DNA of 64,000 bases, from the IMG/VR virus record IMGVR_UViG_3300028392_002123; one strand, given 5' to 3'. Position 1 is the stretch's first letter. Each line of letters begins with the position of its first letter. This DNA is from a virus (taxonomy: Duplodnaviria; Caudoviricetes). This document shows, piece after piece, positions 1 through 57,726 of the stretch. The notes under the pieces are model-generated. The model was not told where the DNA came from. It saw only the letters and a list, made by a program, of their open reading frames with translations, and searched no databases. The position numbers were made by a program, and so were the translations under genes.

Positions 1-76
1 ATTCCGCTTTTTGACCTAACCAGGTAAAAAACTTTCCATGAGCACGACCAATTGCATTTGCAAATTTAACTATCAT
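1..76 (-). CDS. Partial ORF (MIVKFANAIGRAHGKFFTWLGQKAE...) directly downstream of the tmRNA CCA end; runs off the window
   Basis: AAGGA SD followed by ATG at 76; frame stays open to position 1. Confidence 0.55.
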   Translation of the reverse strand, partial: MIVKFANAIGRAHGKFFTWLGQKAE

Positions 77-90
77 AACAAACTTCCTTA

Positions 91-155
91 TGGTGGACCT
101 GGCGGGAGTCGAACCCGCGTCCAGAATCCTTTTCAATCGACTTCATACAGTCTTA
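91..155 (-). ncRNA. ssrA: tmRNA 3' (acceptor) piece, probably of a permuted two-piece tmRNA
   Basis: Minus strand reads ...TTCTGGACGCGGGTTCGACTCCCGCCAGGTCCACCA: T-arm GCGGG/TTCGACT/CCCGC, GGAC motif, U70 for the G3:U70 Ala identity pair, A73 and encoded CCA. No 5' half lies upstream. Confidence 0.8.
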
Positions 156-161
156 ACTTAC

Positions 162-190
162 ATTATATATTTATTTTGTAGTTTTGTCAA
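162..190 (-). promoter_or_regulatory. Consensus sigma70 promoter for the tmRNA acceptor piece
   Basis: TTGACA (190-185), 17 bp, TATAAT (167-162). Confidence 0.85.
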
Positions 191-1175
191 CAAGATTATC
201 TCGAAATATTTCCCAAGCATGTTCCCATGTCCATCGTTGGCTACCTTGCCAAACTTGTTTTCTATTTAAACCCAAACAACGATGAACCGCTGTTGCAAGA
301 TTGTTGTCCATAAATCCTGTAATACCTTGATCTATGACATCTTCTGGACCTTGACAAGGATACGCGGCCACGGGTGTACCGCAGGCCATTGCTTCGATCA
401 TAACTAGTCCAAATGTTTCCCACTGACTAGGAAATACAAATACATCTGCTAGATTATAGTAATATGCTAGTTCAGCGCCTGTTTTAAATCCTACAAATTC
501 TACCCTAGGATATCGTTTCTTGTATGTGTCTAACATGGGCCCATCGCCGACCATAATTTTCTTGGCTCCAGGGTAGTCCATCTTAAAAAAATCTTCTAAG
601 TTTTTTTCTTTACTAACACGACTAACACAGACCAGAGTAAGACCGGTATTTCTACGTTGTTCTCTTGGATAAAATATTTCTCTGTCGACACCACGTGTCC
701 ACGGAAGTACTTCACCATCAAAGCCATGCGACTTTAACTCTGCGACCATCGAATCTGTAGTTGTTAAAACCTTGCCACTATGTTTATGAAACCAGCGTAC
801 AAATCTCCAAGTAAGTGACTCAGGTATACCAAATAGCTTTCTGAGCCCTTCAGGAAACTTAGTGTGATAAGCGGTATTGTGGCGAATATCGCCCAATGAA
901 AGATATGCTCTAGCCCACAGACCAAGAGGACCTTCTGTGGCGATGTGGATATAATCCGGATTGATCTCCTCAATCTTCTTGCCCAAGTTCCTGGGATAGG
1001 CAATCTTGACTTCGTTGTAGCCAGGGCAACTAATGTAGCGGAACCACCCGGGATGAAGCACCACAACGTTATAACCATCCAAAATCGCACATGTCTCAAT
1101 ATTCTTGTAAGTTGTAACCACGCCATTAATTTGATCCGGTAAGTTATCTGTTATTATCAGTATTGTTTTTGTCAT
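171..1175 (-). CDS. agt: GT4 glycosyltransferase, Agt-like (diacylglycerol glycosyl/glucuronosyltransferase type)
   Basis: ITDN..QINGVVTT, IHIATEGPLG, AYHTKFPE, RGVD, SRVSKEKN, FPSQWETFGLVMIEAMACGTPV; adjacent to plcP-like gene. Confidence 0.75.
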   Translation of the reverse strand: MTKTILIITDNLPDQINGVVTTYKNIETCAILDGYNVVVLHPGWFRYISCPGYNEVKIAYPRNLGKKIEEINPDYIHIATEGPLGLWARAYLSLGDIRHNTAYHTKFPEGLRKLFGIPESLTWRFVRWFHKHSGKVLTTTDSMVAELKSHGFDGEVLPWTRGVDREIFYPREQRRNTGLTLVCVSRVSKEKNLEDFFKMDYPGAKKIMVGDGPMLDTYKKRYPRVEFVGFKTGAELAYYYNLADVFVFPSQWETFGLVMIEAMACGTPVAAYPCQGPEDVIDQGITGFMDNNLATAVHRCLGLNRKQVWQGSQRWTWEHAWEIFRDNLVDKTTK

Positions 1176-1920
1176 TTTCCTGTGTCCATGTAACTATTTC
1201 CCAGCGTCCGTCATGATGCTCTACCAGTGCTGTACATGACTCTACCCAGTCACCGTCATTCATGTATGTGACGCCGTCTATTTGTTTGATTTCAGCATGA
1301 TGTATGTGGCCACATATTACACCATCAAAACCTCGCTTCTTACAATAACCTGCTAGATTATGTTCAAACTTGAACATAAAATCTACAGCCTTTTTTACTC
1401 TGTGCTTAAGGAATTGGCTAAGGCTAAAGTACCCAAAACCAAAACGATGACGTATCCAATTGAATTTACTATTAAGCGATAAAATGATATCATATGCTCG
1501 GTCTCCTAAAAATGCTATCCACGGTGCCAGTCTAGTTATTCCATCAAACAAATCACCATGTGTGACAAGATAATGTTTACCGTCTGCACCTATATGTTCT
1601 ATTTGATTGTGTATTTCAACAAGTCCAAAACTGAAACCATAGGGTATCATCGGACGCAGGAATTCGTCATGATTTCCAGCCACGTATACAACCCTAGTGC
1701 CACGTTTACTATGACCAAGAACCCTACGAACGACATTGGTATGGCTTTGTTTCCATCGCCATTTGTTTTGTTGGATTCTCCAAGCATCTATGATATCTCC
1801 CACAAGGTATAGCGTGTCGCAGGTATTGTGTTTAAGGAAATTATTAAGAGCTTCTGCTTTACAATCTCTGGTACCTAAATGCACATCGGAAATAAAAATA
1901 CTGCGATAAGTCTTTAGCAT
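1144..1920 (-). CDS. plcP: Metallophosphoesterase, PlcP-type phospholipase (LpxH-like family)
   Basis: FISDVHLG, LVGDIID, GNHD (not the GNRD of LpxH), THGD, CGHIH, NDGDWVESCTALVE. Confidence 0.8.
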   Translation of the reverse strand: MLKTYRSIFISDVHLGTRDCKAEALNNFLKHNTCDTLYLVGDIIDAWRIQQNKWRWKQSHTNVVRRVLGHSKRGTRVVYVAGNHDEFLRPMIPYGFSFGLVEIHNQIEHIGADGKHYLVTHGDLFDGITRLAPWIAFLGDRAYDIILSLNSKFNWIRHRFGFGYFSLSQFLKHRVKKAVDFMFKFEHNLAGYCKKRGFDGVICGHIHHAEIKQIDGVTYMNDGDWVESCTALVEHHDGRWEIVTWTQENDKNNTDNNR

Positions 1921-1926
1921 AGCTAG

Positions 1927-1971
1927 TATTTATCGCAGTATCGTTTTTAAAAGATTACAAGTTAATTACAC
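1927..1971 (-). promoter_or_regulatory. Putative Pho box with -10 element, plus late TAAATA motif, upstream of plcP
   Basis: GTGTAAT-TAAC-TTGTAAT (11-bp period, 1971-1954), 11 nt, GATACT (1942-1937); TAAATA at 1932-1927, 6 nt before ATG. Confidence 0.55.
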
Positions 1972-2130
1972 TTAAATCCTTACCACAGTCCATTTAGTTG
2001 TAAATGGTTTACCTTCGGCCTTATGTTTCAGTATCTTTGCAAACTCTTTTTTACGTAGTTTAGCGATGGTTTCTGTATCGTGGTCGAAGCAAGCCTTGTA
2101 CAACTTCTGAATTAACTTTTGTTGTTTCAT
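1972..2130 (-). CDS. 52-aa basic hypothetical protein ([18 protein letters not shown]...), not in the ORF track
   Basis: Strong SD AAGGAGG, TAAATA upstream, open frame to TAA at 1972. Confidence 0.7.
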
Positions 2131-2162: not shown

Positions 2163-2187
2163 AAAAAAGGGCTTGTTATAAGCCCTT
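2163..2187 (-). terminator. Intrinsic terminator
   Basis: AAGGGCTT-ATAAC-AAGCCCTT followed by a T-tract. Confidence 0.8.
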
Positions 2188-2232
2188 AGTGCTGGTTACG
2201 AGTCTCCAGCGACACCCAATCTTGTGCCCGTG
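2163..2232 (-). ncRNA. Putative ~70-nt structured small RNA or leader of unknown family
   Basis: Intergenic. Tandem hairpins GGCAC/GTGTC and GCTGG/CCAGC followed by a terminator; promoter-like elements directly upstream. Confidence 0.45.
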
Positions 2233-2236
2233 CTTT

Positions 2237-2271
2237 TATTTAAGCCTAAAGGTGTTACAATTATATTACAC
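2237..2271 (-). promoter_or_regulatory. Second putative Pho box upstream of the small RNA
   Basis: GTGTAAT-ATAA-TTGTAAC (2271-2254, 11-bp period), 11 nt, TAAATA (2242-2237); a TATAAT (2265-2260) is also embedded. Confidence 0.5.
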
Positions 2272-2719: not shown

Positions 2720-3373
2720 TTAGTTCTCCATTTCTTTTAACTTACTACGAAATTCATCAGTGAATCTTCCATCTACTCTAAAACTGCATCTAAGTCCTGG
2801 TGCAGATTTGGTTTCATGTGTTTTATAGCTGTTAAAATAATTAACGCAGGAAGCGGGTGTTCCGTTGACATATAATTCTTTTTTGAGCAAAGGATTTGGA
2901 TTTGTTAGCCAAATAAATTCTGGTGTGCTTCTAAATCCTATAGGAGCTCTTGTTAAATCCTGATCCACATGTGGAGGAGTATAACTATTTCCCAGCTGTA
3001 TAAAAACTATTTGTCGGCCGGTGCCTTGAAATATATTCAGATCGGCAATCCAATTGGATACTTCTTTAAAATTTTTCATTGCATCATCTTCCATCCAAAA
3101 ATCTGAATTTCCCAATTGATACCATGCCGAATTCCACTTTGATAAGTCTTTAGGTCTAGTCAATAGTACATCCATGTTACCGATGTCATCTCCTGTGATC
3201 AAAGACTTGTACCATTTAAATTCTTCGGCGGTAGTGAAATCTCTAGGAGTTGCACCATCGTAGCCATAGAATACACTGGCTTTTCTCCTCGACTTAGCAA
3301 TACCTCGATAAAATACGTCCCATGGGAAGGTATTGATGTCAATGATACTGGATAAATCGTAACAGTCTTTCAT
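2720..3373 (-). CDS. Probable 2OG-Fe(II) oxygenase (Asp/Asn beta-hydroxylase-like fold)
   Basis: HxD (PPHVD), distal His (THET) and C-terminal R-x-S-x-R pattern. Confidence 0.5.
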   Translation of the reverse strand: MKDCYDLSSIIDINTFPWDVFYRGIAKSRRKASVFYGYDGATPRDFTTAEEFKWYKSLITGDDIGNMDVLLTRPKDLSKWNSAWYQLGNSDFWMEDDAMKNFKEVSNWIADLNIFQGTGRQIVFIQLGNSYTPPHVDQDLTRAPIGFRSTPEFIWLTNPNPLLKKELYVNGTPASCVNYFNSYKTHETKSAPGLRCSFRVDGRFTDEFRSKLKEMEN

Positions 3374-3380
3374 CTTGTAT

Positions 3381-3536
3381 TTATTTTATAATCTTTAAAA
3401 ATTTTAAAAGATTATAGAATCTAGACTTATACGGATCTGCTAGTACTTGTTCTATATAACTAGGATGATGCGGACATCTTCCCTGCTTATAGTCGCACTC
3501 AGGTGAGTATTGTCTGTGACAATTTTTGCATTGCAT
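3381..3536 (-). CDS. Small Cys/His-rich hypothetical protein
   Basis: MQCKNC...C...CPHH; start moved to 3536. Confidence 0.55.
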   Translation of the reverse strand: MQCKNCHRQYSPECDYKQGRCPHHPSYIEQVLADPYKSRFYNLLKFLKIIK

Positions 3537-4098
3537 TTTTCTTTTCCTCACAGGGTTCGCAAATTGTGCGGACCCATCCGCCACCTCGGCGTTCGCCGGG
3601 GTTACCGCACGATTCGCAAGTACAGCCACTCATAGCTTCTGCCATAGTAACCATTCCTCTAATATAGTCATCACCGCCTGTGTAGTAAAAACGTAGTGTG
3701 CCAAACTTTTCTTTAACTTGGTCCAATGTCACTTGGGGAACAAGTTCTGGAACATCACGCAAAGGATTCTTAATCATTTCTTCGCAACGTTCACGGATGT
3801 AGTCTGCACCGATAGTTGGCTGGTCTGCGTACTCTTTAGCAACCAAATCAGCAAACAATTCTGCATTACCACTCTTGCCAGCTTGTGCCATTTCGTTATA
3901 CTTGACGGCCCAATCACGCTGACGTTCCTTCCAATCGATGTGATGTTGGATATTGCCCATAAGTTGATTAAGGATGTTGTACCAACCATCTCCACATTCA
4001 AAGCCCCAGCACATACAAGTTTCTGTCATAGGCTTGTTGCGATTAACCATCATCTTAGGATACTTTTCACATAGCAATGCGTCTAGTTCTTGTTTCAT
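3499..4098 (-). CDS. Conserved phage hypothetical protein (QVKEKFGTLRFY family, C-terminal Zn ribbon)
   Basis: GDGW and QVKEKFGTLRFY motifs; CESC...CEPC. Confidence 0.75.
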   Translation of the reverse strand: MKQELDALLCEKYPKMMVNRNKPMTETCMCWGFECGDGWYNILNQLMGNIQHHIDWKERQRDWAVKYNEMAQAGKSGNAELFADLVAKEYADQPTIGADYIRERCEEMIKNPLRDVPELVPQVTLDQVKEKFGTLRFYYTGGDDYIRGMVTMAEAMSGCTCESCGNPGERRGGGWVRTICEPCEEKKNAMQKLSQTILT

Positions 4099-4106
4099 AT
4101 CGTTCC

Positions 4107-4301
4107 TTATGTATAATCTCGTAGTACGAAATCAATGGCTTCTATCATTTTAGTGTTATGTTCCACATCTTCAGGATGTAGCCATTCACCTTTTTTAAAA
4201 CCTCTTAATTCTTTTTTTAAGTAATCTTTATAATCATTTAAATTAAGAACTGTTATCTTGTCTGCTGTTTCTTTATCAATTGTTAAATCAAATTTACTCA
4301 T
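4107..4301 (-). CDS. Hypothetical protein
   Basis: AAGGA SD, operon context. Confidence 0.6.
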   Translation of the reverse strand: MSKFDLTIDKETADKITVLNLNDYKDYLKKELRGFKKGEWLHPEDVEHNTKMIEAIDFVLRDYT

Positions 4302-4852
4302 AGTGTCTCCGTGTCAAATGGCCATTTATTAGCTTTATTTTCTTCATGCCATTTTTTTATTTCTACAGCAATTTCTTCTTTGGTACGTAGTTTTACATTT
4401 TCTTCAATGACGGTACCATCATCTTCGCATAAGCTAACTTGGTACGGTGCATCAATAACAAGATAGTCATCTTCAACTTGCCAATCGTGACTGCCATCAA
4501 ACAACCATGCCGCGCCGCCACGCTCATCGTCGTCGTTGGGATCGCCTTCTATATAGCATATTTTAATGTGTTCTTGTTCTTCTTCTGAAATATCATCACT
4601 AAACTCAAACCAGCAGGCGTGTTGGTCGTCTAGTTCAGCACCCCATCCGCAGTCCATTTTAGCATGAGCTTGGATATCCCCTTCAATGGGCAAGTTACAT
4701 GCCATGTCTTCTTCAACAAACCCTTGCCCCCAGCGATAGTGATCGTCAACGTTGAACCAGCTGATAGAACCGTCTGCATTGTCACGATACATTTCAACGT
4801 GCCAGCAAATGCTCTTTTTATGTAAGGGTTTGATTAGGTATACTTTAGACAT
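4298..4852 (-). CDS. Acidic hypothetical protein
   Basis: ORF track; overlap-coupled to neighbours. Confidence 0.7.
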   Translation of the reverse strand: MSKVYLIKPLHKKSICWHVEMYRDNADGSISWFNVDDHYRWGQGFVEEDMACNLPIEGDIQAHAKMDCGWGAELDDQHACWFEFSDDISEEEQEHIKICYIEGDPNDDDERGGAAWLFDGSHDWQVEDDYLVIDAPYQVSLCEDDGTVIEENVKLRTKEEIAVEIKKWHEENKANKWPFDTETL

Positions 4853-5355
4853 TATTCTTCTACAAAGTTAATTACATTGCCATCTTCATCTGCACATATA
4901 ATACGTACAGTTTCGCCTGCTTCGTTTTTGATTTCAATTGGTCCCCAAATCCACCATTCGGTTTCATCGTTGTACCAGGAATCATCTTCACGATCTTCTA
5001 ATTCATAGATGCTATTTTCATCAATAAACTCTTGAATCTCTTCTTCCTCTTCTTCTGTAAGATCTTCAAATTCTACATCATACCAGCAACCACCGTCGAA
5101 CATTTCAACAAGTTCAACACTTTCAATATTGTTAACTTCGCAGTCTAGCATATTGATACTGTCTTTACGACCATCACCGCCGGGTACTTCTGTAAACTCA
5201 AATTCTGGCGGATTGTCGTCTGTAGTTTCTACAGTCCATTCGCCATAACGATAACCGTTAGTGACTGTGATTCGACCATCGCCTTCTCGTCGAACCCAGT
5301 GTTCAACTTCTTGGCAAGATTTTTTGTGATAAGTGCTAACAGTCCACTGTGCCAT
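4852..5355 (-). CDS. Acidic hypothetical protein, probable distant paralogue of 4298-4852
   Basis: Similar N-terminus (HKKS), acidic core and W-rich segment. Confidence 0.7.
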   Translation of the reverse strand: MAQWTVSTYHKKSCQEVEHWVRREGDGRITVTNGYRYGEWTVETTDDNPPEFEFTEVPGGDGRKDSINMLDCEVNNIESVELVEMFDGGCWYDVEFEDLTEEEEEEIQEFIDENSIYELEDREDDSWYNDETEWWIWGPIEIKNEAGETVRIICADEDGNVINFVEE

Positions 5356-6051: not shown

Positions 6052-6878
6052 AGGCTTTGTCTAATTTTGATAAGACGAATCATCATTTCTTCGTCTTCCT
6101 TTTCGTAAGCCGCTTCAATCTTTTGAAGTAGCTTGTGAGCGTTGTCGCTGGCCTTTTTAAGCACTGGATCTTTATCTACACTAAAACTTAGACGTCCACC
6201 GTTAGCCGCACGACTTGCTTCACAGGCCGCAGTCCACCCACTTGCTTCGTATGGGTCTGGACGGTTGCGATAGGTCACGGTCCACCAGTTGTACAGCTCA
6301 ATAATTTCCTTGGCAGATTTAGCTTGCCAAGTAGGTTCTCCAAAACCTTTACTGCCTGGTTCTGCCCCCATATCTTCACCTATAGTGAGACTACTGGCCC
6401 ACTTTAGATACTCCATACCTGCTTCTGGGCACCGCCAAGTTCTCCAGCGCAACCATCCACTACGGTACCATGGCACATCAAACTTGGTTTTAGCTTCGTC
6501 ACTCCACATACAGTGATGCCAGGCTTGCTCTATTTCAACAAAGTCTTGAAGCTCGTTAAATAGGCATGGCAGGAATCTATTCCCAACATCGCTCCAAGAG
6601 CCAGGGCGAATATCGCGAACATGAGCGGTAAGACTATGACTGCGACTGACCCAACGATTATTAATATAATATCTAACATCATTTAATTTATCCGGTATGT
6701 AATAAACAACTTTTTGAATGTAGTCTAAACCTTCTTCGGCCAACCACCAACGAATGGGGTATGCGGCTTTAGCACGATCTTCCCATTCATGCCATTCCTC
6801 GCTGGTACCTGCTTTGAGTTTAGTGGTCCCGCGAATCCAATCTGCAAATTTACTACATGTCCAATAGTGATTTCTCAT
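6042..6878 (-). CDS. Conserved phage hypothetical protein (Trp-rich)
   Basis: 278-aa ORF with AAGGAG SD. Confidence 0.75.
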   Translation of the reverse strand: MRNHYWTCSKFADWIRGTTKLKAGTSEEWHEWEDRAKAAYPIRWWLAEEGLDYIQKVVYYIPDKLNDVRYYINNRWVSRSHSLTAHVRDIRPGSWSDVGNRFLPCLFNELQDFVEIEQAWHHCMWSDEAKTKFDVPWYRSGWLRWRTWRCPEAGMEYLKWASSLTIGEDMGAEPGSKGFGEPTWQAKSAKEIIELYNWWTVTYRNRPDPYEASGWTAACEASRAANGGRLSFSVDKDPVLKKASDNAHKLLQKIEAAYEKEDEEMMIRLIKIRQSLWT

Positions 6879-7222
6879 ATCGCTCCTTTTCTTAATCTGT
6901 GTATAAATTTAGCTTCTAAAATTAGTCTTGCCGCTTCGGGATCGCGCATCATATCATCCCAGTCATCTAATGTACTAACCATCTTGGCAAATTCCGGTTC
7001 AGCAATATCCATGGTAAGCATAGTTACATGACTTCGTTCCATGTATCTATCAAAATCTATATAACTAGTCTCGTCCCATATGTCCCGTGAATGTGTGGGT
7101 AAATGCCGCACTCTTTCTTCTATTCTTGTTTTAATATTACTAATTTGATATCGATCCGCGACTCTGCGAGCTTGATCCATATTGATATTTGACTGTGTTA
7201 CCATGTTTTTTGTTATTGCCAT
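6875..7222 (-). CDS. Hypothetical protein
   Basis: ORF track, operon context. Confidence 0.6.
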   Translation of the reverse strand: MAITKNMVTQSNINMDQARRVADRYQISNIKTRIEERVRHLPTHSRDIWDETSYIDFDRYMERSHVTMLTMDIAEPEFAKMVSTLDDWDDMMRDPEAARLILEAKFIHRLRKGAI

Positions 7223-7950
7223 AACAGTTTTTTTATTCCATGTAAATTTTTGTAAGTCACAATCTCTTCAGGCATGGACATTACACTATCTTTTATTATA
7301 CGCTCTTTTTCTTTAGTGTCAATATATTCTTTATAAGGAATTACTATTGTTTTAATCAAAAATACACTGGTCAATCCAAGTTCGATGGTATCAAAAGTTT
7401 GGTACTCATATCTAAAATATAAATCATCGATGCTGTTTGGAGTAGGAGTTAGATAACTGGGATGGTTGCTTAATTTTGGATTGGCTGTAATCGTCCAAAC
7501 TGTGCGGCACCAAGGGCCGGCGCCGCTGGCCATAATATCTGCAATACGATTGCTTGCGGCACGTAACTCATCGCCCCGGGCCACAGGACGATGTATTTCT
7601 TCCAGAGTCATCATTAACTTGCTGGCAGGATCCCATCCACTGGGAAATGCTACAAATAAACTTTGTAGTCTGCCTTTGTGCATGATAACAACATCTTCTT
7701 CTAAATGGAATCCTAGTTCTAAAATATTGTTTGTTTGAAATCCCAGTCGATTTGCTGTTTTGCTTACTATGTTATCTGCATAAGCTTCATCACTGCTGGC
7801 CCAAAGTCCATGGGGCTGTTTAATAGATTTAAACTCGTCGTACTTGGCATCGATGTATCGATGATCGGGTATTTTGCTGTACAACGGCCCTGTTAGTTTT
7901 CTAAAATTTGGGCGAGTTGTGTACGGTTTATCTTCAACTACGAATTCCAT
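7213..7950 (-). CDS. DUF3445 / heme-dependent oxidative N-demethylase alpha-subunit-like protein
   Basis: EEDVVIM, VAFPSGWDP..K....L.EIH.PV, R..WTI, R.EYQT motifs. Confidence 0.7.
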   Translation of the reverse strand: MEFVVEDKPYTTRPNFRKLTGPLYSKIPDHRYIDAKYDEFKSIKQPHGLWASSDEAYADNIVSKTANRLGFQTNNILELGFHLEEDVVIMHKGRLQSLFVAFPSGWDPASKLMMTLEEIHRPVARGDELRAASNRIADIMASGAGPWCRTVWTITANPKLSNHPSYLTPTPNSIDDLYFRYEYQTFDTIELGLTSVFLIKTIVIPYKEYIDTKEKERIIKDSVMSMPEEIVTYKNLHGIKKLLWQ

Positions 7951-29487: not shown

Positions 29488-30201
29488 GTGATGACAGAAC
29501 TAATTTATACCCTTGTTGTAACACATATCACTATTGTTTCAGTTACACTATTTTTGCATCGTAGTCAAGCACACAAAGCAGTAACATTCCATCCCATTTT
29601 ATCACATTTTTTCAGAGCCTGGCTATGGTTGACCACAGGTATGATCACTAAACAATGGGTTTCAATACATCGCAAACATCATAGGTTCAGTGATGTTGAT
29701 GGTGATCCACATAGTCCCATTGTTCATGGCATTAGAAATATATTCTTTCGAGGAGTATATTATTACTATCTAGAAGCTAAAAATCCGTCTACAGTTTTGC
29801 AATACGGTAAAGGTACACCCAGCGACTGGATTGAAAAAAAATTATACACTCCATATAACCATTATGGAATTTTAATCATGCTGGCTATCAATGTACTGTT
29901 ATTTGGTTGGTGGGGACTGCTCATATGGATAACACAGATGCTGTGGATTCCATTCTGGGCGGCCAGCGTTATTAATGGACTGGGACATTGGTTTGGTTAT
30001 CGCAATGGTGAAACCAGAGACTCTAGTAAAAATATTGTTCCTATTGCTCTGTGGATAGGCGGCGAAGAACTGCACAACAATCATCATCTAGCACCAGCTA
30101 GTGCTAAATTTAGTCGTCGTTGGTTTGAGCTTGATATAGGTTGGATCTATATAAAATTATTTAATTTTTTAAGACTTGCCACTATCAATACCGTAAACTA
30201 A
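29488..30201 (+). CDS. Membrane fatty acid desaturase (delta-9/DesA-like)
   Basis: Three His boxes HRSQAH, HRKHH, HNNHH; TM segments; WFELDIGW. Confidence 0.9.
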   Translation: MMTELIYTLVVTHITIVSVTLFLHRSQAHKAVTFHPILSHFFRAWLWLTTGMITKQWVSIHRKHHRFSDVDGDPHSPIVHGIRNIFFRGVYYYYLEAKNPSTVLQYGKGTPSDWIEKKLYTPYNHYGILIMLAINVLLFGWWGLLIWITQMLWIPFWAASVINGLGHWFGYRNGETRDSSKNIVPIALWIGGEELHNNHHLAPASAKFSRRWFELDIGWIYIKLFNFLRLATINTVN

Positions 30202-47938: not shown

Positions 47939-49471
47939 TTATAATACCCCGATAGGCATGGGGGTAATGAAGTCATCACTGCTTCTTTCTACCAAATAAT
48001 TCCATGTTGCTTCATCATAGCGCATTAAATGCTCTACAATTCTAACGCATAATATTGTTGCCATAACTAGATCGTCTGTTTCGCCTTCCTTGGCAGCAAA
48101 GCTAGGGCCTTTGGCAACAAAAGTTTTTATTTCGGAGATCAAATTTTTACTATAAAGCTTCATTTTATCTGATTCTATGTAATATTTCAACTTGGTACAA
48201 GCTGATAATTTACTCTTGTGTCCGGTGTTAAATCCCTTGCGACTTTTACCAGGTTCGCTTAAAAAGAATCCGGGTATTCTATCTTCGCCATATTCGCTGA
48301 TAGCAACCAATGCGGCTTCGCCAATGGTATTGTTTTCCACGCTCCAATACAGCTTATCGTTTTCAACGCCTGCATCCTTCATCCATTCTGCCATGGCTAT
48401 TAAATTTCTTAGTTGGCCGCGAATGTCTGTTTTATTATGTTGCCACTCTGCTAGTTGTTCAAACTCGGGTAAACTAAAAATTTGAATGGCCGCAAAATCT
48501 CCGCCTGTGCCTAGGCTAGGATCCCATGCCATAACATAAGTTTTTGTTTTATCAATGTCTTTGTATACACGCACCTGTCCTATGCGAGTTATAGGATCAA
48601 TGCCCATTATGTGCTGTAGCTTTAGACTGTTGACCAAGGTTTCGTCAGCAGTAATAAACTTACATTCGTGTTCTCGAAGGAAGCGATCCTCGCCTATCTT
48701 GTTACGTTCTTGATATGCCCAGGTTTCATCTCTGTCAGGATGATCACTCCAAATATACGAAATACTAGCAAAGCCATTGCGTCCTGTTTGTGTTGGGTTA
48801 CCAAACTCGTCTATATTTTTAACTGCTTCATTCCAAATCTGTGCGAACTGATCGTTGTCTTGGTTAGGTGTACTTGTGATAATACATTTACCACCTGTAC
48901 TCAATGTTGGGCTTAGTGCTGTCCAGAATTCTTTGGCGATGCGTGGCGGAACGAACGCAAACTCGTCTAAGTATACCAGTGTAATACTCATACCACGACC
49001 AGTATTTTCTGTTGTTGTAGCACTGACAATGCGACTGCCGTTGTCAAAGTCGATACTGCCCTTGTTATAACTTACTGCGCCAGCTTTGATCCATTCGGGT
49101 AAACTTTCATACATGAAACGCACACGTTGCATAATTTCCTGTGCGCCTGTGTATTTGTGTGCGGCAATAAGAATAGTTGAATCTGGTACAAACATTGCGT
49201 ACCATAACAAGTATCCTGCGGCACAGGTTGATTTACCCATTTGTCTACCCAGCATGTTAATGCTAAAGCGATTATTTTGATAACAGTTAATCAGATCAAT
49301 TTGATACTCATAGAGTTCAAATTTAACACGACCTTTTATAGGGTGCTGAATCCACATATACTCTCTAATAAAGTATATAGGATCAGTAGCGGATTTTACA
49401 ATCTCCGCTATCTGATTTTCTGTATAATTTTCTTTCTTGTAAGGTGATTTTACAAGTACAGTTTCACTCAT
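47939..49471 (-). CDS. terL: Terminase large subunit (T4 gp17-like)
   Basis: GRQMGKS, YLDEFAF, ITSTPN, FLREHEC, WDP..GTGGD, DDLVMA. Confidence 0.95.
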   Translation of the reverse strand: MSETVLVKSPYKKENYTENQIAEIVKSATDPIYFIREYMWIQHPIKGRVKFELYEYQIDLINCYQNNRFSINMLGRQMGKSTCAAGYLLWYAMFVPDSTILIAAHKYTGAQEIMQRVRFMYESLPEWIKAGAVSYNKGSIDFDNGSRIVSATTTENTGRGMSITLVYLDEFAFVPPRIAKEFWTALSPTLSTGGKCIITSTPNQDNDQFAQIWNEAVKNIDEFGNPTQTGRNGFASISYIWSDHPDRDETWAYQERNKIGEDRFLREHECKFITADETLVNSLKLQHIMGIDPITRIGQVRVYKDIDKTKTYVMAWDPSLGTGGDFAAIQIFSLPEFEQLAEWQHNKTDIRGQLRNLIAMAEWMKDAGVENDKLYWSVENNTIGEAALVAISEYGEDRIPGFFLSEPGKSRKGFNTGHKSKLSACTKLKYYIESDKMKLYSKNLISEIKTFVAKGPSFAAKEGETDDLVMATILCVRIVEHLMRYDEATWNYLVERSSDDFITPMPIGVL

Positions 49472-54091: not shown

Positions 54092-56491
54092 TTATTTGGT
54101 CGTTCCTAATTCGCCGGTATTAACCACGCGGATTGGAATATAGATAAATTCAGCGGCTTTAGTTGGTTCAATAGCAACATCAATCCATAATTCGTTTTTA
54201 TCTATTTTAGCTGGTGTGTTGTTTGTTTCATCACAAACAACGATAAAGTCATATATGGCTCTCTTGGCCAACATATCTGATAAGAATGCGTCAAACACAG
54301 ATTTAGCGTTAGTGCGTGTGATCTTATCGTTGGGTTCGAAAATAAACGGACGAGCTAATGGATCGAAACGTTCACGTAAGTAAGCCAATAAGCGACCTAC
54401 GTTAATTCTGTCCAATGCTGTAGAAGCGTATTGTAAAGTTTTCTGACCGAATACATATAAGCCTTGTCCAGGGAAGTTAGCCAATGGGTTAAGTCTGTTT
54501 GCATACAATGTATCACGTTGACCACCTGTTAATGCTACTGGAATAAATTCGCCGTCCATGTTAACATAGCCCACGTTCGAAGCATTAGTAATAACACCGC
54601 GTGTTAAACCTGCAGGTGCAAACCATGGATAACTAACTTGGTCATTGTATGCCATTGTTCTTAGTACAACATGACTTGCTGGAACAACTACATCATTGCC
54701 CATTAAATCTGTTGTGATTGCGCTTGGGTAGTAAGCGGCACAAGTACTTTCGGCACTGATTAAACCATCTTCGCCGTTTGAGCCAGCATTAACACCTGTT
54801 GCCCAATCAATGATTTCTTGACCAGCTGGTGCTAAACGTAATGGAGTATCAATGATGATAAACGCTGTTTCTTTACGGTCAACGTTTAATGTTACCATTT
54901 CGTCTGTTAACTCTGGATAACCAGGAGCGGCAATCAATGTAAAATATACTGTTTCTTCACGGATCTTTGTGTTGTTAGTCACAGCGGCCTGCATAGCTTT
55001 AACTACTGCACGACGTTGTGCTTTGCGTAACATATAAGGTTGGCCAGCTTTAGGACCTGCATCATAGTTACCACTGTATGAATGCCATTTACCAGTCATA
55101 GCATCGTATTGTTTGACGTTGCCAGTGCTTACCATAGTGTTCCATAATAGCATATCTTCCGGATGGAATGCTGGATCTGGTGCTTCCATATCGATGGCTG
55201 TTGCGCCGCCGCCATTAGACGTATCACCTGCTGTTGCTGTTAAATCAGCAAAGATTACACCATTAGGTGTAGATTGATCAGCTGTGTCTCGCTCGACCCA
55301 AACTGAACCACTGTAAACAAATATTCTTGGATAATTTTCTAAGTCACTGGTATCAACCCAAACATCATTGGTGTTAGGAGATACAGGTGCGCTGGAATCA
55401 ACTGTTACATTAGTAGTAACTGGTTGCCATTTACCGTTGGCCTTTTTATACAAGTCAACTGTTAGGTTTGAGTTATACCATAGTGCGCCATCTACTGGTG
55501 CTCCAACTGGTGCAGTATAATGTGCTTCATAGGAATTAGAACTGGCTAGATCAGTCCATGCTGTTCCGTTATAGATTTTTAATTCAAATGCTACAAGGCC
55601 ACCGCCTGCAACTTTTACATACATGTCGCCGTTGTTTAATGAAGCGCCGTAGCCAGTTGTTGCATGGGCATCATCTTGATATTGTGGCATATCTTGTGCG
55701 ATCCACTGACGTGTTGTTGAATTATATTTCTTAACAACAACTTTCAATCCGTGATTTGGAGTTGTTGTTTGAATCCATACATCACCGGTGTTGCCTATTG
55801 CTGGTACTGTTGTACCTAGTTTATAGTGTGGTTGTGCATAAACAGCAATACCCAATGATGTGTTTACTGCAACCCATGTGCCAGCTGTTTTTCTATATAG
55901 TGTATTAGGAGGATTGCCACCACCTGCATACAAAGATACAGCGTAGTTACCGTTGGCGCCAAAACTATCTAATGGCTTTTTAATACCGTCTACTTGTGCT
56001 TGACTTGGAATTAATACAGTTTTAGTAGCCCATACTGTGCCATTCCATTCTTTTACACCCCATACTGTGTCAGCTAGATCTAACCAGTATGTTCCGTTAG
56101 TTGGTGCGCCAGCTGGTTCGTGTGTAGATGATTCAAGTTGACTTAAATCAACATCTGCACGTAGAACATAAGCACGATTTGCAAGACCTAAGAAACTGTA
56201 AGCGGCCATTAAACCGTATTCGTTTACTTCTGATCCGTGTACCGGAGTTCCGTCTACTACAGTAAACATCGGCGCTCCGAATTTTTCAATTAGTTCACGC
56301 TGACTAGTTAACAAATATGGTTTATTTGCATTGGAAGGCATTGTGCCTTCAGCATAGCCACTGCCACTAACATTTGGTTTGTTTGATTCAGTTGCTAAGA
56401 TAATTAATGGGACTGTTCCTTGGGAACCGGATCCATATGCGCTTTCGTCGATTACGCTGACTGCTACGCCTGGGGATACTAAATTGGCCAT
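54092..56491 (-). CDS. Contractile tail sheath protein (gp18-like) with a large insertion domain
   Basis: LVSPGV.VS..DES, WFAPAGLTRG, LYANRLNP, FGQKT, DRINV.RL, FIFEPND, P.KA.EFIYIP. Confidence 0.95.
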   Translation of the reverse strand: MANLVSPGVAVSVIDESAYGSGSQGTVPLIILATESNKPNVSGSGYAEGTMPSNANKPYLLTSQRELIEKFGAPMFTVVDGTPVHGSEVNEYGLMAAYSFLGLANRAYVLRADVDLSQLESSTHEPAGAPTNGTYWLDLADTVWGVKEWNGTVWATKTVLIPSQAQVDGIKKPLDSFGANGNYAVSLYAGGGNPPNTLYRKTAGTWVAVNTSLGIAVYAQPHYKLGTTVPAIGNTGDVWIQTTTPNHGLKVVVKKYNSTTRQWIAQDMPQYQDDAHATTGYGASLNNGDMYVKVAGGGLVAFELKIYNGTAWTDLASSNSYEAHYTAPVGAPVDGALWYNSNLTVDLYKKANGKWQPVTTNVTVDSSAPVSPNTNDVWVDTSDLENYPRIFVYSGSVWVERDTADQSTPNGVIFADLTATAGDTSNGGGATAIDMEAPDPAFHPEDMLLWNTMVSTGNVKQYDAMTGKWHSYSGNYDAGPKAGQPYMLRKAQRRAVVKAMQAAVTNNTKIREETVYFTLIAAPGYPELTDEMVTLNVDRKETAFIIIDTPLRLAPAGQEIIDWATGVNAGSNGEDGLISAESTCAAYYPSAITTDLMGNDVVVPASHVVLRTMAYNDQVSYPWFAPAGLTRGVITNASNVGYVNMDGEFIPVALTGGQRDTLYANRLNPLANFPGQGLYVFGQKTLQYASTALDRINVGRLLAYLRERFDPLARPFIFEPNDKITRTNAKSVFDAFLSDMLAKRAIYDFIVVCDETNNTPAKIDKNELWIDVAIEPTKAAEFIYIPIRVVNTGELGTTK

Positions 56492-56503
56492 TGTTATTCT
56501 CCT

Positions 56504-56533
56504 TAATTGGTTAAGTATATTTACCAATTAGAG
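56504..56533 (-). promoter_or_regulatory. Late motif within a hairpin abutting the sheath RBS
   Basis: TAATTGGT/ACCAATTA stem around TAAATA (56523-56518). Confidence 0.55.
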
Positions 56534-57697: not shown

Positions 57698-57726
57698 AGT
57701 ATATAGTCGTGTAATCTACTTGTAAA
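57698..57726 (-). promoter_or_regulatory. sigma70 promoter 6 nt before ATG (probably leaderless)
   Basis: TTTACA, 17 bp, TATACT. Confidence 0.65.

Follow-up and report, generated by a model that had tools for sequence, protein, structure and literature searches.

A phage-borne PlcP–Agt-type gene pair as a candidate module for mining host membrane phosphorus

What use might a phage have for a gene pair that in bacteria serves membrane lipid renovation? The question is raised by a stretch of 64,000 nucleotides from IMG/VR virus record IMGVR_UViG_3300028392_002123 (Duplodnaviria; Caudoviricetes), here called the window, near the start of which a plcP-like esterase gene runs into an agt-like glycosyltransferase gene. 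A sequence-only reading of the window had described overlapping genes for a GNHD-type metallophosphoesterase and a glycosyltransferase of family 4 (GT4), and both open reading frames (ORFs), the motif and the Pfam domains are found where that reading put them:

1144–1920, minus strand: plcP, predicted PlcP-family Mn-type metallophosphoesterase, 258 aa (Pfam, LpxH models, identity, trees, AlphaFold (AF2) model, dN/dS)
171–1175, minus strand: agt-like GT4, predicted diacylglycerol glycosyltransferase, 334 aa (Pfam, identity to Agt1, genome searches, key residues, AF2 model)

The end of the esterase frame and the start of the GT4 frame share 32 nt (1144–1175). We read the pair as a phage-borne bacterial PlcP–Agt lipid-renovation operon, an auxiliary metabolic module that mines membrane phosphorus, probably under host PhoB; on balance we believe this to be right, with considerable room for doubt. 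Family membership, conserved gene order, purifying selection and a motif common to plcP and the phosphate-uptake gene pstS are what the data show.

The window is phage DNA, with genes for the large terminase (47939–49471), tail sheath (54092–56527), a class I ribonucleotide reductase, DnaB-like and other helicases and virion proteins. Its GT4 protein is recorded on a 340,548-bp contig, and the source is an uncultured myophage of fresh water, ~340.5 kb in size. The sequencing runs in which the stretch occurs are from freshwater or lake metagenomes, bar a few labelled only 'metagenome' and one marine run with a small share. Megablast of the first 6 kb against GenBank phages returned no match, indicating a clade without a close cultured relative.

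The esterase groups with PlcP rather than LpxH

Pfam places the esterase in Metallophos (calcineurin-like metallophosphoesterase, 4.7e-11), and no signal peptide is visible. Its GNHD motif is G82-N83-H84-D85, and the metal-ligand set D12, H14, D42, N83, H121, H205 and H207 is invariant across a 31-sequence alignment. The only solved relatives detected by sequence are LpxH (E ~5e-4, N-terminal half only), and the aligned K. pneumoniae LpxH has GNRD where the phage esterase has GNHD. Two LpxH equivalog models score the esterase far below their curated cut-offs (NF003743, 45.5 bits against 134; TIGR01854, 35.3 bits against 190). The same models give 218–333 bits to a true, separate LpxH in each of three bacterial genomes and 47–57 bits to the plcP-like genes of those genomes; a fourth genome, from a sphingomonad, has the plcP-like gene only.

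The literature criterion for PlcP is a BLASTP match to MED193 PlcP at E<1e-40; we judged similarity against the PA3219- and SMc00171-locus proteins in its place, both taken from replicons filed as plasmids in PLSDB. The phage esterase is 56% identical to the Pseudomonas aeruginosa PA3219-locus protein (E 3e-94) and 47% identical to the Sinorhizobium meliloti SMc00171-locus protein (E 4e-84). In the S. meliloti anchor, a 3.72-Mb replicon, the single homologue adjoins a LuxR-type regulator and an acyl-homoserine-lactone synthase gene, a neighbourhood that we take, from the gene numbering, to be the SMc00171 position. In the P. aeruginosa anchor record the esterase gene overlaps a gene for a family-1 glycosyltransferase, which is followed by cyaB, matching the published arrangement PA3219-PA3218-PA3217; PA3219 and S. 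meliloti PlcP are themselves 46% identical (PMC8528852). A Rhodobacterales plasmid homologue (Thioclava, 35% identity) was dropped as an anchor for want of a lipid-synthesis neighbour and for its very long branch.

At E<1e-30 a library-wide HMMER search gave 945 representative clusters, of which the closest that do not belong to the phage clade have 50–55% identity, and the best 80 matches in species-representative genomes (50–58% identity) are nearly all from Alpha-, Beta- and Gammaproteobacteria. Phylogeny, which the sequence-only reading had proposed as a check on its choice of PlcP over LpxH, upheld that choice: in a tree of 117 rows rooted on four LpxH sequences, the phage protein lies within a 113-tip PlcP side that splits off at 100% support on a very long branch. 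The freshwater-phage plcP genes form one group (support 99) that joins the gammaproteobacterial side with Pseudomonas PA3219 at 90, and the SMc00171 protein sits on the other side of the PlcP tree. Recent capture from a host was considered and rejected, since metagenome proteins 87–92% identical to the esterase have phage contexts, the nearest bacterial proteins are only 51–58% identical and the phage clade is not nested in any bacterial class.

The AF2 model of the esterase (predicted local distance difference test, pLDDT, 89) has a phosphoesterase sandwich with a helical cap at residues 127–195, and its top 25 fold matches in the PDB are all LpxH, a lipid-binding member of the superfamily. 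The ratio of non-synonymous to synonymous substitution (dN/dS) against relatives is 0.03–0.05, with synonymous sites saturated. The window copy is missing the C-terminal tail of most relatives (294 aa), and the GT4 start overlaps there instead. We assign the esterase, on its sequence, to the PlcP family and not to LpxH, and predict Mn-dependent hydrolysis of phosphatidylcholine, phosphatidylethanolamine and phosphatidylglycerol.

The glycosyltransferase is an Agt-type GT4 with a phage-specific motif

The 334-aa protein matches Glyco_transf_4 and Glycos_transf_1, which together define GT4 (2.8e-23). Agt-like motifs had been seen near its N terminus, and the words ILIITDN..QINGVV, HIATEGPLG and YHTKFPE indeed fall in columns that are invariant, or nearly so, among the GT4s found after plcP in bacteria. 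P. aeruginosa Agt1, an enzyme that produces monoglucosyl-diacylglycerol in E. coli (PMC8528852), is 40% identical to the phage GT4 over 329 residues (E 7e-79). Membership of a generic, non-lipid GT4 group had been named as grounds for abandoning the sequence-only reading; strong matches proved to be of Agt type only. Searched against five bacterial genomes, the phage GT4 finds the plcP-adjacent gene at 195–253 bits in each, a second Agt-like copy elsewhere in one of them at 260 bits, and every remaining GT4 at 62 bits or less.

For GTcp, the SAR11 enzyme, mutation of Gly16, Gly82, Gly85, His104, Thr162, Arg163, Arg190, Lys195, Thr257, Phe258, Gly259, Glu264 or Trp320 abolishes activity, and His104, Thr162, Arg163 and Trp320 are crucial in diacylglycerol binding (PMC8231724). 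Equivalents of all thirteen are present in the phage protein (G18, G82, G85, H104, T160, R161, R186, K191, T254, F255, G256, E261 and W317), the numbering being transferred by motif rather than by direct alignment to GTcp; the two proteins are equal in length at 334 aa.

The catalytic segment departs from this pattern. The window GT4 reads SRVSKEKN and FPSQWETFG and so does not match the signatures GRVAxEKN and FPSxTDTFG: Glu253 occupies the position of the GTcp catalytic Asp256, and the preceding Thr is replaced by Trp252. The resulting WE variant restores the general GT4 E-x7-E motif, and one cellular copy in the alignment has TE. Because the Glu is paired with a Thr-to-Trp change and the pair is conserved under purifying selection, we read WE as the mark of a functional variant, possibly with another sugar donor, rather than of a dead enzyme.

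The phage GT4s form one clade, split from the cellular GT4s at a support of 100. The AF2 model (pLDDT 91) has as its nearest reviewed folds GT4s acting on membrane lipids: MgtA, SQD2, two alpha-monoglucosyl-diacylglycerol synthases and PimA/PimB-type mannosyltransferases. Against relatives dN/dS is 0.12–0.20; both window genes are under strong purifying selection and are maintained. We place the GT4 in a phage subclade that diverges within the Agt group and do not count it as a typical member; it is predicted to transfer sugar from a UDP-sugar to diacylglycerol.

The pair keeps a bacterial gene order and is common among freshwater phages

Directly 3' of plcP and on the same strand, 54 of the 80 nearest bacterial loci carry an Agt-type GT4 that is 36–46% identical to the phage GT4, the order of the type-2 plcP-agt arrangement of Sebastian et al. 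(PMC4796936). We examined the gene 3' of plcP in 82 phage loci, window included. A 238-aa glycosyltransferase of family 2 (GT2) occupies this place in 50, an Agt-type GT4 in 26 (the window among them), and a RimK-like ATP-grasp gene followed by a GT4 in two. The esterase is thus almost always found with a glycosyltransferase from one of two unrelated families, which argues for a functional link through a shared intermediate. The RimK-like ATP-grasp ligase gene between plcP and GT4 (PF08443, 6.9e-47) lies at 6719–7618 in one of its loci (L046) and recurs in the other (L080).

The sequence-only reading had called the strategy an unusual one. The module stands; its rarity does not, the module being common in a large clade of freshwater phages, with plcP relatives on at least 523 IMG/VR contigs. 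A protein-cluster search returned at least 8000 matches for each protein, in thousands of 90%-identity clusters; among the matches listed are PlcP clusters at 87–92% identity and many GT4 clusters at 77–87%. Contexts of close homologues are phage-like, on contigs of 170–513 kb.

Two isolates carry more distant homologues: that of Pelagibacter phage Mosig (47% identity) is oriented divergently to a neighbour with the annotation putative phosphate ABC transporter, that of Synechococcus phage S-SRM01 is 37% identical, and both are annotated UDP-2,3-diacylglucosamine hydrolase or diphosphatase. The Mosig intergenic region between transporter and plcP (L001, 5851–6000) has TTAACA repeats at 11-bp spacing (TTTAACA-aaaa-CTTAACA), and 5 nt separate a TAAATA from the plcP ATG; these repeats may be a host-adapted counterpart of the freshwater-phage box described below. 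One freshwater metatranscriptome contains contigs 85–99% alike over parts of both genes, which is no proof of transcription and allows no start site to be read.

Pho-box-like repeats precede plcP and pstS

The region upstream of plcP contains, by inspection of the sequence and the ORF list:

1927–1932, minus strand: TAAATA box; 10 nt separate it from the third repeat and 6 nt from the plcP ATG
1943–1971, minus strand: Pho-box-like direct repeats GTGTAAT-taac-TTGTAAT-cttt-TAAAAAC, the third degenerate
1972–2130, minus strand: conserved ORF of 52 aa, flanked by the two Pho-box-like sites and preceded by a Shine-Dalgarno and a TAAATA of its own
2237–2271, minus strand: second Pho-box-like site GTGTAAT-ataa-TTGTAAC with TAAATA at 11-nt spacing, 300 bp further upstream

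The first repeat set begins right after the stop codon of the 52-aa ORF; in many related loci the C-terminal coding words of this ORF are found again immediately before the plcP promoter. In the 64 kb the pattern TGTMAY-N5-TGTMAY matches twice, against 0.37 expected, and both matches are upstream of plcP. Across 819 kb of related phage loci there are 44 matches, 28 of them within 150 nt upstream of plcP, a density ~230-fold that elsewhere. Of the remainder, seven precede a phage pstS (confirmed at 398 bits, cut-off 339), four an Ala/Val/Glu-rich ORF and one a radical-SAM gene, and at the sites of all three kinds exactly 11 nt separate the second repeat from TAAATA. The whole records of five relatives (1.34 Mb) hold 13 matches, against 5 for a reversed control pattern; six inspected matches outside the plcP and pstS regions of these relatives have no TAAATA at 11 nt and no gene at promoter distance. 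A relative whose 359.6-kb genome is 100% complete has just two matches, one ahead of plcP and the other, 173 kb away, ahead of pstS.

Spacing from repeat to TAAATA in relatives is 11 nt, or 21–22 nt where a third repeat is present, and TAAATA stands 4–7 nt ahead of the plcP ATG in 38 of the 40 upstream regions that hold it. E. coli PhoB-dependent promoters (pstS, phoA) have 7-bp direct repeats every 11 bp and ~10 nt to the -10 box, so the geometry of the phage repeats and their distance of about one helical turn from a -10-like TAAATA box fit promoters of this kind. The consensus Pho box is CTGTCAT-N4-CTGTCAT (quoted in PMC8528852), and some relatives carry the canonical TGTCAC/TGTCAT forms at the same position, for example GTGTCAC-agaa-TTGTCAT. 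That plcP and the phage pstS have such repeats in common lends the phosphate-starvation reading support beyond that of the first reading of the window.

TAAATA is not confined to plcP. On the coding (minus) strand of the window 23 of 46 copies lie within 54 nt of an ORF start, structural genes included, and the plus strand has 11 copies; at several starts (for example 3373, 12127, 18972, 29057 and 47916, minus strand) the box stands 4–6 nt before the ATG and leaves no room for a Shine-Dalgarno. Such placement suggests that the phage has a T4-late-like promoter and that its mRNAs are often leaderless or begin with very short leaders. Between the TAAATA box and the plcP ATG there is likewise no Shine-Dalgarno, suggesting that the plcP mRNA would be leaderless or nearly so, and an Rfam search of the plcP leader found no known RNA.

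The 64-kb window has no homologue of pstS or of the Ala/Val/Glu-rich ORF. In relatives the latter sits behind a box-11nt-TAAATA arrangement just downstream of plcP and its glycosyltransferase gene, and encodes a protein (MRFEDLAARL..., ..AEAKVDTLLGK) with no Pfam match:

L039, 7706–8653: Ala/Val/Glu-rich ORF
L032, 4880–5524: Ala/Val/Glu-rich ORF
L041, 7990–8643: Ala/Val/Glu-rich ORF
L062, 3349–4047: Ala/Val/Glu-rich ORF

It is a putative third member of a phage phosphate regulon.

Several further observations concern the repeats. At 2163–2271 (minus strand) the second box promoter is followed by ~70 nt without an ORF, within which lie two hairpins (GCTGG..CCAGC at 2191–2210; a GC stem with a T-run at 2163–2186), with a fold z of -2.4; the same hairpin pair occurs in relatives at the 3' end of pstS or GT4, and the stretch may encode a small RNA regulated by phosphate or be what remains of a deleted pstS cassette. 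A third copy, GTGTAAT-N4-TTGTAA at 57709–57725 (plus strand), lies in the intergenic gap between two minus-strand genes; it was rejected as a site, being without TAAATA, failing the stricter pattern and facing the wrong way, and is due to chance or unexplained. A regular-expression search for Pho boxes upstream of 80 bacterial plcP loci, where gene starts are unmapped, found one.

A proposed route for membrane phosphorus, and its rivals

We infer from these data the enzyme activities, their substrates, PhoB binding, a leaderless transcript and a phosphorus benefit, arranged as follows. Under phosphate scarcity, host PhoB would bind the 11-bp-spaced TGTAAT/TGTCAY repeats, which lie one helical turn upstream of TAAATA in the same design as the pstS promoter of these phages, and would activate the phage promoter. 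PlcP, as a cytoplasmic LpxH-like binuclear-metal phosphoesterase with a lipid-binding helical cap, would cut host inner-membrane glycerophospholipids into diacylglycerol and a phospho-head group. The translationally coupled Agt-type GT4 would then move sugar from a UDP-sugar onto the diacylglycerol, so that the bilayer would be refilled with phosphorus-free glycolipid while lipid phosphorus would pass to the soluble pool for phage nucleotide synthesis. The quantities are compatible with such a use. A genome of 340,548 bp contains ~6.8e5 P atoms, and an E. coli-sized cell has ~2e7 phospholipids, equivalent to ~30 genomes, or to a few in a tenfold smaller lake bacterium; by this estimate the membrane phosphorus pool is of the same order as a jumbo-phage burst.

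Several points weigh against this account. No phosphatase gene was found next to plcP, and as the predicted PlcP products are phospho-head groups, release of inorganic phosphate would depend on host enzymes. TAAATA resembles the T4-type late-promoter core. The repeat core is mostly TGTAAY against the canonical TGTCAY, and about half of the relatives' plcP upstream regions are without the motif, because plcP sits inside other operons there. The PlcP tree came from a quick search with internal supports of 87–90, which makes its internal order provisional. Finally, FPSxWETFG is found in 29 of 29 phage GT4s against FPSxTDTFG in 54 of 59 cellular ones, and the D256E substitution cost GTcp more than 90% of its activity (PMC8231724); the donor, and even the acceptor, of the phage GT4 may differ from those of known Agt.

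The most serious rival keeps the enzymes and changes their purpose: envelope change rather than phosphorus supply, for superinfection exclusion, altered adsorption, resistance to grazers or membrane agents, or membrane tuning for large-virion assembly or lysis. Lipid composition is reported to affect phage attachment and predation in bacteria (PMC9938194, PMC9457565). The phage also carries a desaturase gene (29488–30201), and relatives keep one a few kb from plcP, suggesting a broader membrane-lipid theme, while the phage-specific WE motif could mean a head group unlike the host's. The motif that plcP has in common with pstS nevertheless points to phosphate economy, and exclusion would need no phosphate-dependent control; we regard envelope change as unlikely. 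Control itself might be of another kind, with the enzymes acting as proposed above: the repeats could be the operator or promoter of a phage-encoded regulator of plcP, pstS and the Ala/Val/Glu-rich gene, with expression timed by infection. The excess of TGTAAY over TGTCAY cores, the standing of TAAATA as a general phage promoter-like box and a target (the Ala/Val/Glu-rich gene) without a known phosphate link all fit this. Both annotated targets, plcP and pstS, are nonetheless classic Pho-regulon functions, and the 7+4 bp tandem geometry, the -10 distance of about one turn and the exact TGTCAC/TGTCAT variants fit PhoB boxes, which leaves a phage regulator distinctly improbable to our minds.

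Further from the proposed route, the esterase could act on a non-phospholipid substrate (a lipid A precursor as for LpxH, a nucleotide-sugar, or a different pyrophosphate or phosphodiester) and the GT4 away from diacylglycerol, on a lipopolysaccharide (LPS) or capsule intermediate, a phage protein or DNA, in surface-glycan remodelling or virion modification. Databases and virus surveys do name the gene lpxH or file it under LPS biosynthesis, the closest solved folds are all LpxH, and the GT4 catalytic motif is unlike that of proven Agt. Yet the esterase misses the LpxH equivalog models by ~90–155 bits, has GNHD instead of the LpxH GNRD and is 47–56% identical to two experimentally grounded PlcPs, while the GT4 keeps the GTcp diacylglycerol-binding equivalents H104, T160/R161 and W317 and finds as strong bacterial matches only Agt-type genes, the plcP-linked gene of each genome included. 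This combination makes a non-lipid role very improbable.

The lipid-renovation reading can be extended to the whole clade: jumbo phages of freshwater proteobacteria might run a small phosphate regulon through host PhoB, comprising pstS, plcP with its glycosyltransferase and the Ala/Val/Glu-rich protein, with a leaderless plcP message that begins at the AUG shortly after TAAATA, and a WE-Agt or GT2 that yields a virus-specific glycolipid, its head group unlike that of the surrogate lipids made by the host. So specific a scheme is speculative, and we would not expect it to hold in every part; were it true, infected cells would gain a virus-specific membrane lipid while surrendering lipid phosphorus.

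Relation to known systems

The closest comparison is with the PlcP–Agt operons of Proteobacteria (P. aeruginosa PA3219/PA3218 Agt1, S. meliloti SMc00171, SAR11 HTCC7211 PlcP/GTcp and B. cenocepacia BCAL2364/2365). The phage module has the same families in the same order, with the GT4 directly after plcP and translationally coupled; its identities (PlcP 47–56%, Agt1 40%) fall within the range among proven members, and its upstream tandem-repeat box resembles the Pho boxes reported for those operons. Unlike them it is viral, and the phage clade is monophyletic and lies outside any sampled bacterial class. Its GT4 has WE for TD, there is no dagK, the box core is mostly TGTAAY, TAAATA lies 4–7 nt from the start codon, and a 238-aa GT2 replaces the GT4 in most relatives.

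As with the phosphate genes (pstS, phoA, phoH) of cyanophages and pelagiphages, a gene for scarcity is preceded by a putative phosphate-starvation box of host type; for cyanophage pstS, control by the PhoBR system of the host was reportedly described by Zeng and Chisholm in 2012. Those genes raise uptake or scavenge external phosphorus, whereas the plcP module would mobilise and replace a store in the host membrane. LpxH, the only solved relative, has the same fold with a helical lipid-binding cap, but differs in GNRD for GNHD, in its ~19% identity and in being a separate paralogue in bacteria that hold both. Cyanophage-encoded lipid desaturases, said to have been reported by Roitman et al. 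in 2018, are likewise auxiliary metabolic genes acting on membrane lipids, and the window phage has a desaturase homologue too; they modify acyl chains, whereas the plcP module would change head groups and phosphorus content.

In lakes and oceans alike, microbes are often limited by phosphorus, of which a 340-kb phage genome ties up a large amount. If the lipid-renovation reading is true, these phages would have a different strategy, turning host membrane phospholipids, a major cellular phosphorus pool, into virus-usable phosphorus while the membrane is kept. No account of a PlcP or Agt encoded by a virus emerged from full-text literature searches that paired plcP with phage, virus or auxiliary metabolic gene; copies in phages go unmentioned in a review of lipid renovation and phage therapy, as does the plcP gene in the announcement of the Mosig genome. 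Virus surveys, including surface ocean water and Lake Baikal, list "lpxH" among LPS-biosynthesis auxiliary metabolic genes (PMC10653327, PMC9611531); this "lpxH" is probably the PlcP family under a database name, and its likely role has in that case been overlooked. The enzymes and pathway are known from bacteria, and the novelty lies in their carriage by a virus, in the phage-specific Agt motif and in the promoter design of plcP and pstS. The presence of plcP in the isolates Mosig and S-SRM01 makes a bench test possible, the promoter design common to plcP and pstS would allow control of phage genes by host PhoB to be tested directly in phages other than cyanophages, and the conserved Thr-Asp to Trp-Glu change is a natural experiment on sugar specificity in lipid GT4s.

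Neighbouring genes

The desaturase homologue at 29488–30201 (plus strand), a fatty-acid desaturase, is a second membrane-lipid gene in the phage. It is 61–68% identical to FA_desaturase genes within a few kb of plcP in two relatives (L002, L005), and no Pho-box-like site is seen ahead of it. Upstream of the module, four genes (2404–2718, 2720–3373, 3499–4098 and 4298–5355, all minus strand) have no Pfam or PHROG match; one of them encodes a 104-aa protein with a signal-peptide-like N terminus and a His/Gln/Pro-rich body.

Downstream of the GT4, window positions 1–152 (minus strand), in a feature running past the window start, resemble the 3' end of a tRNA (T-arm, acceptor, CCA). Truncated where the window ends, it fits the acceptor piece of a tmRNA of the permuted, two-piece kind (RF04321, 32.8 bits) and also scores 42.8 bits with RF00023, both below the Rfam gathering score; ARAGORN calls no gene in the window. 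Read depth at 88–174 is very high in every run examined. In four relatives ARAGORN finds complete permuted tmRNAs 1–4 kb upstream of plcP:

L002, 3587–4020: tmRNA
L010, 4755–5299: tmRNA
L065, 4916–5288: tmRNA
L022, 4682–5094: tmRNA

Their tags, ANDSQFALAA or ANDEQFALAA, are of a betaproteobacterial style, which offers a lead to the host.

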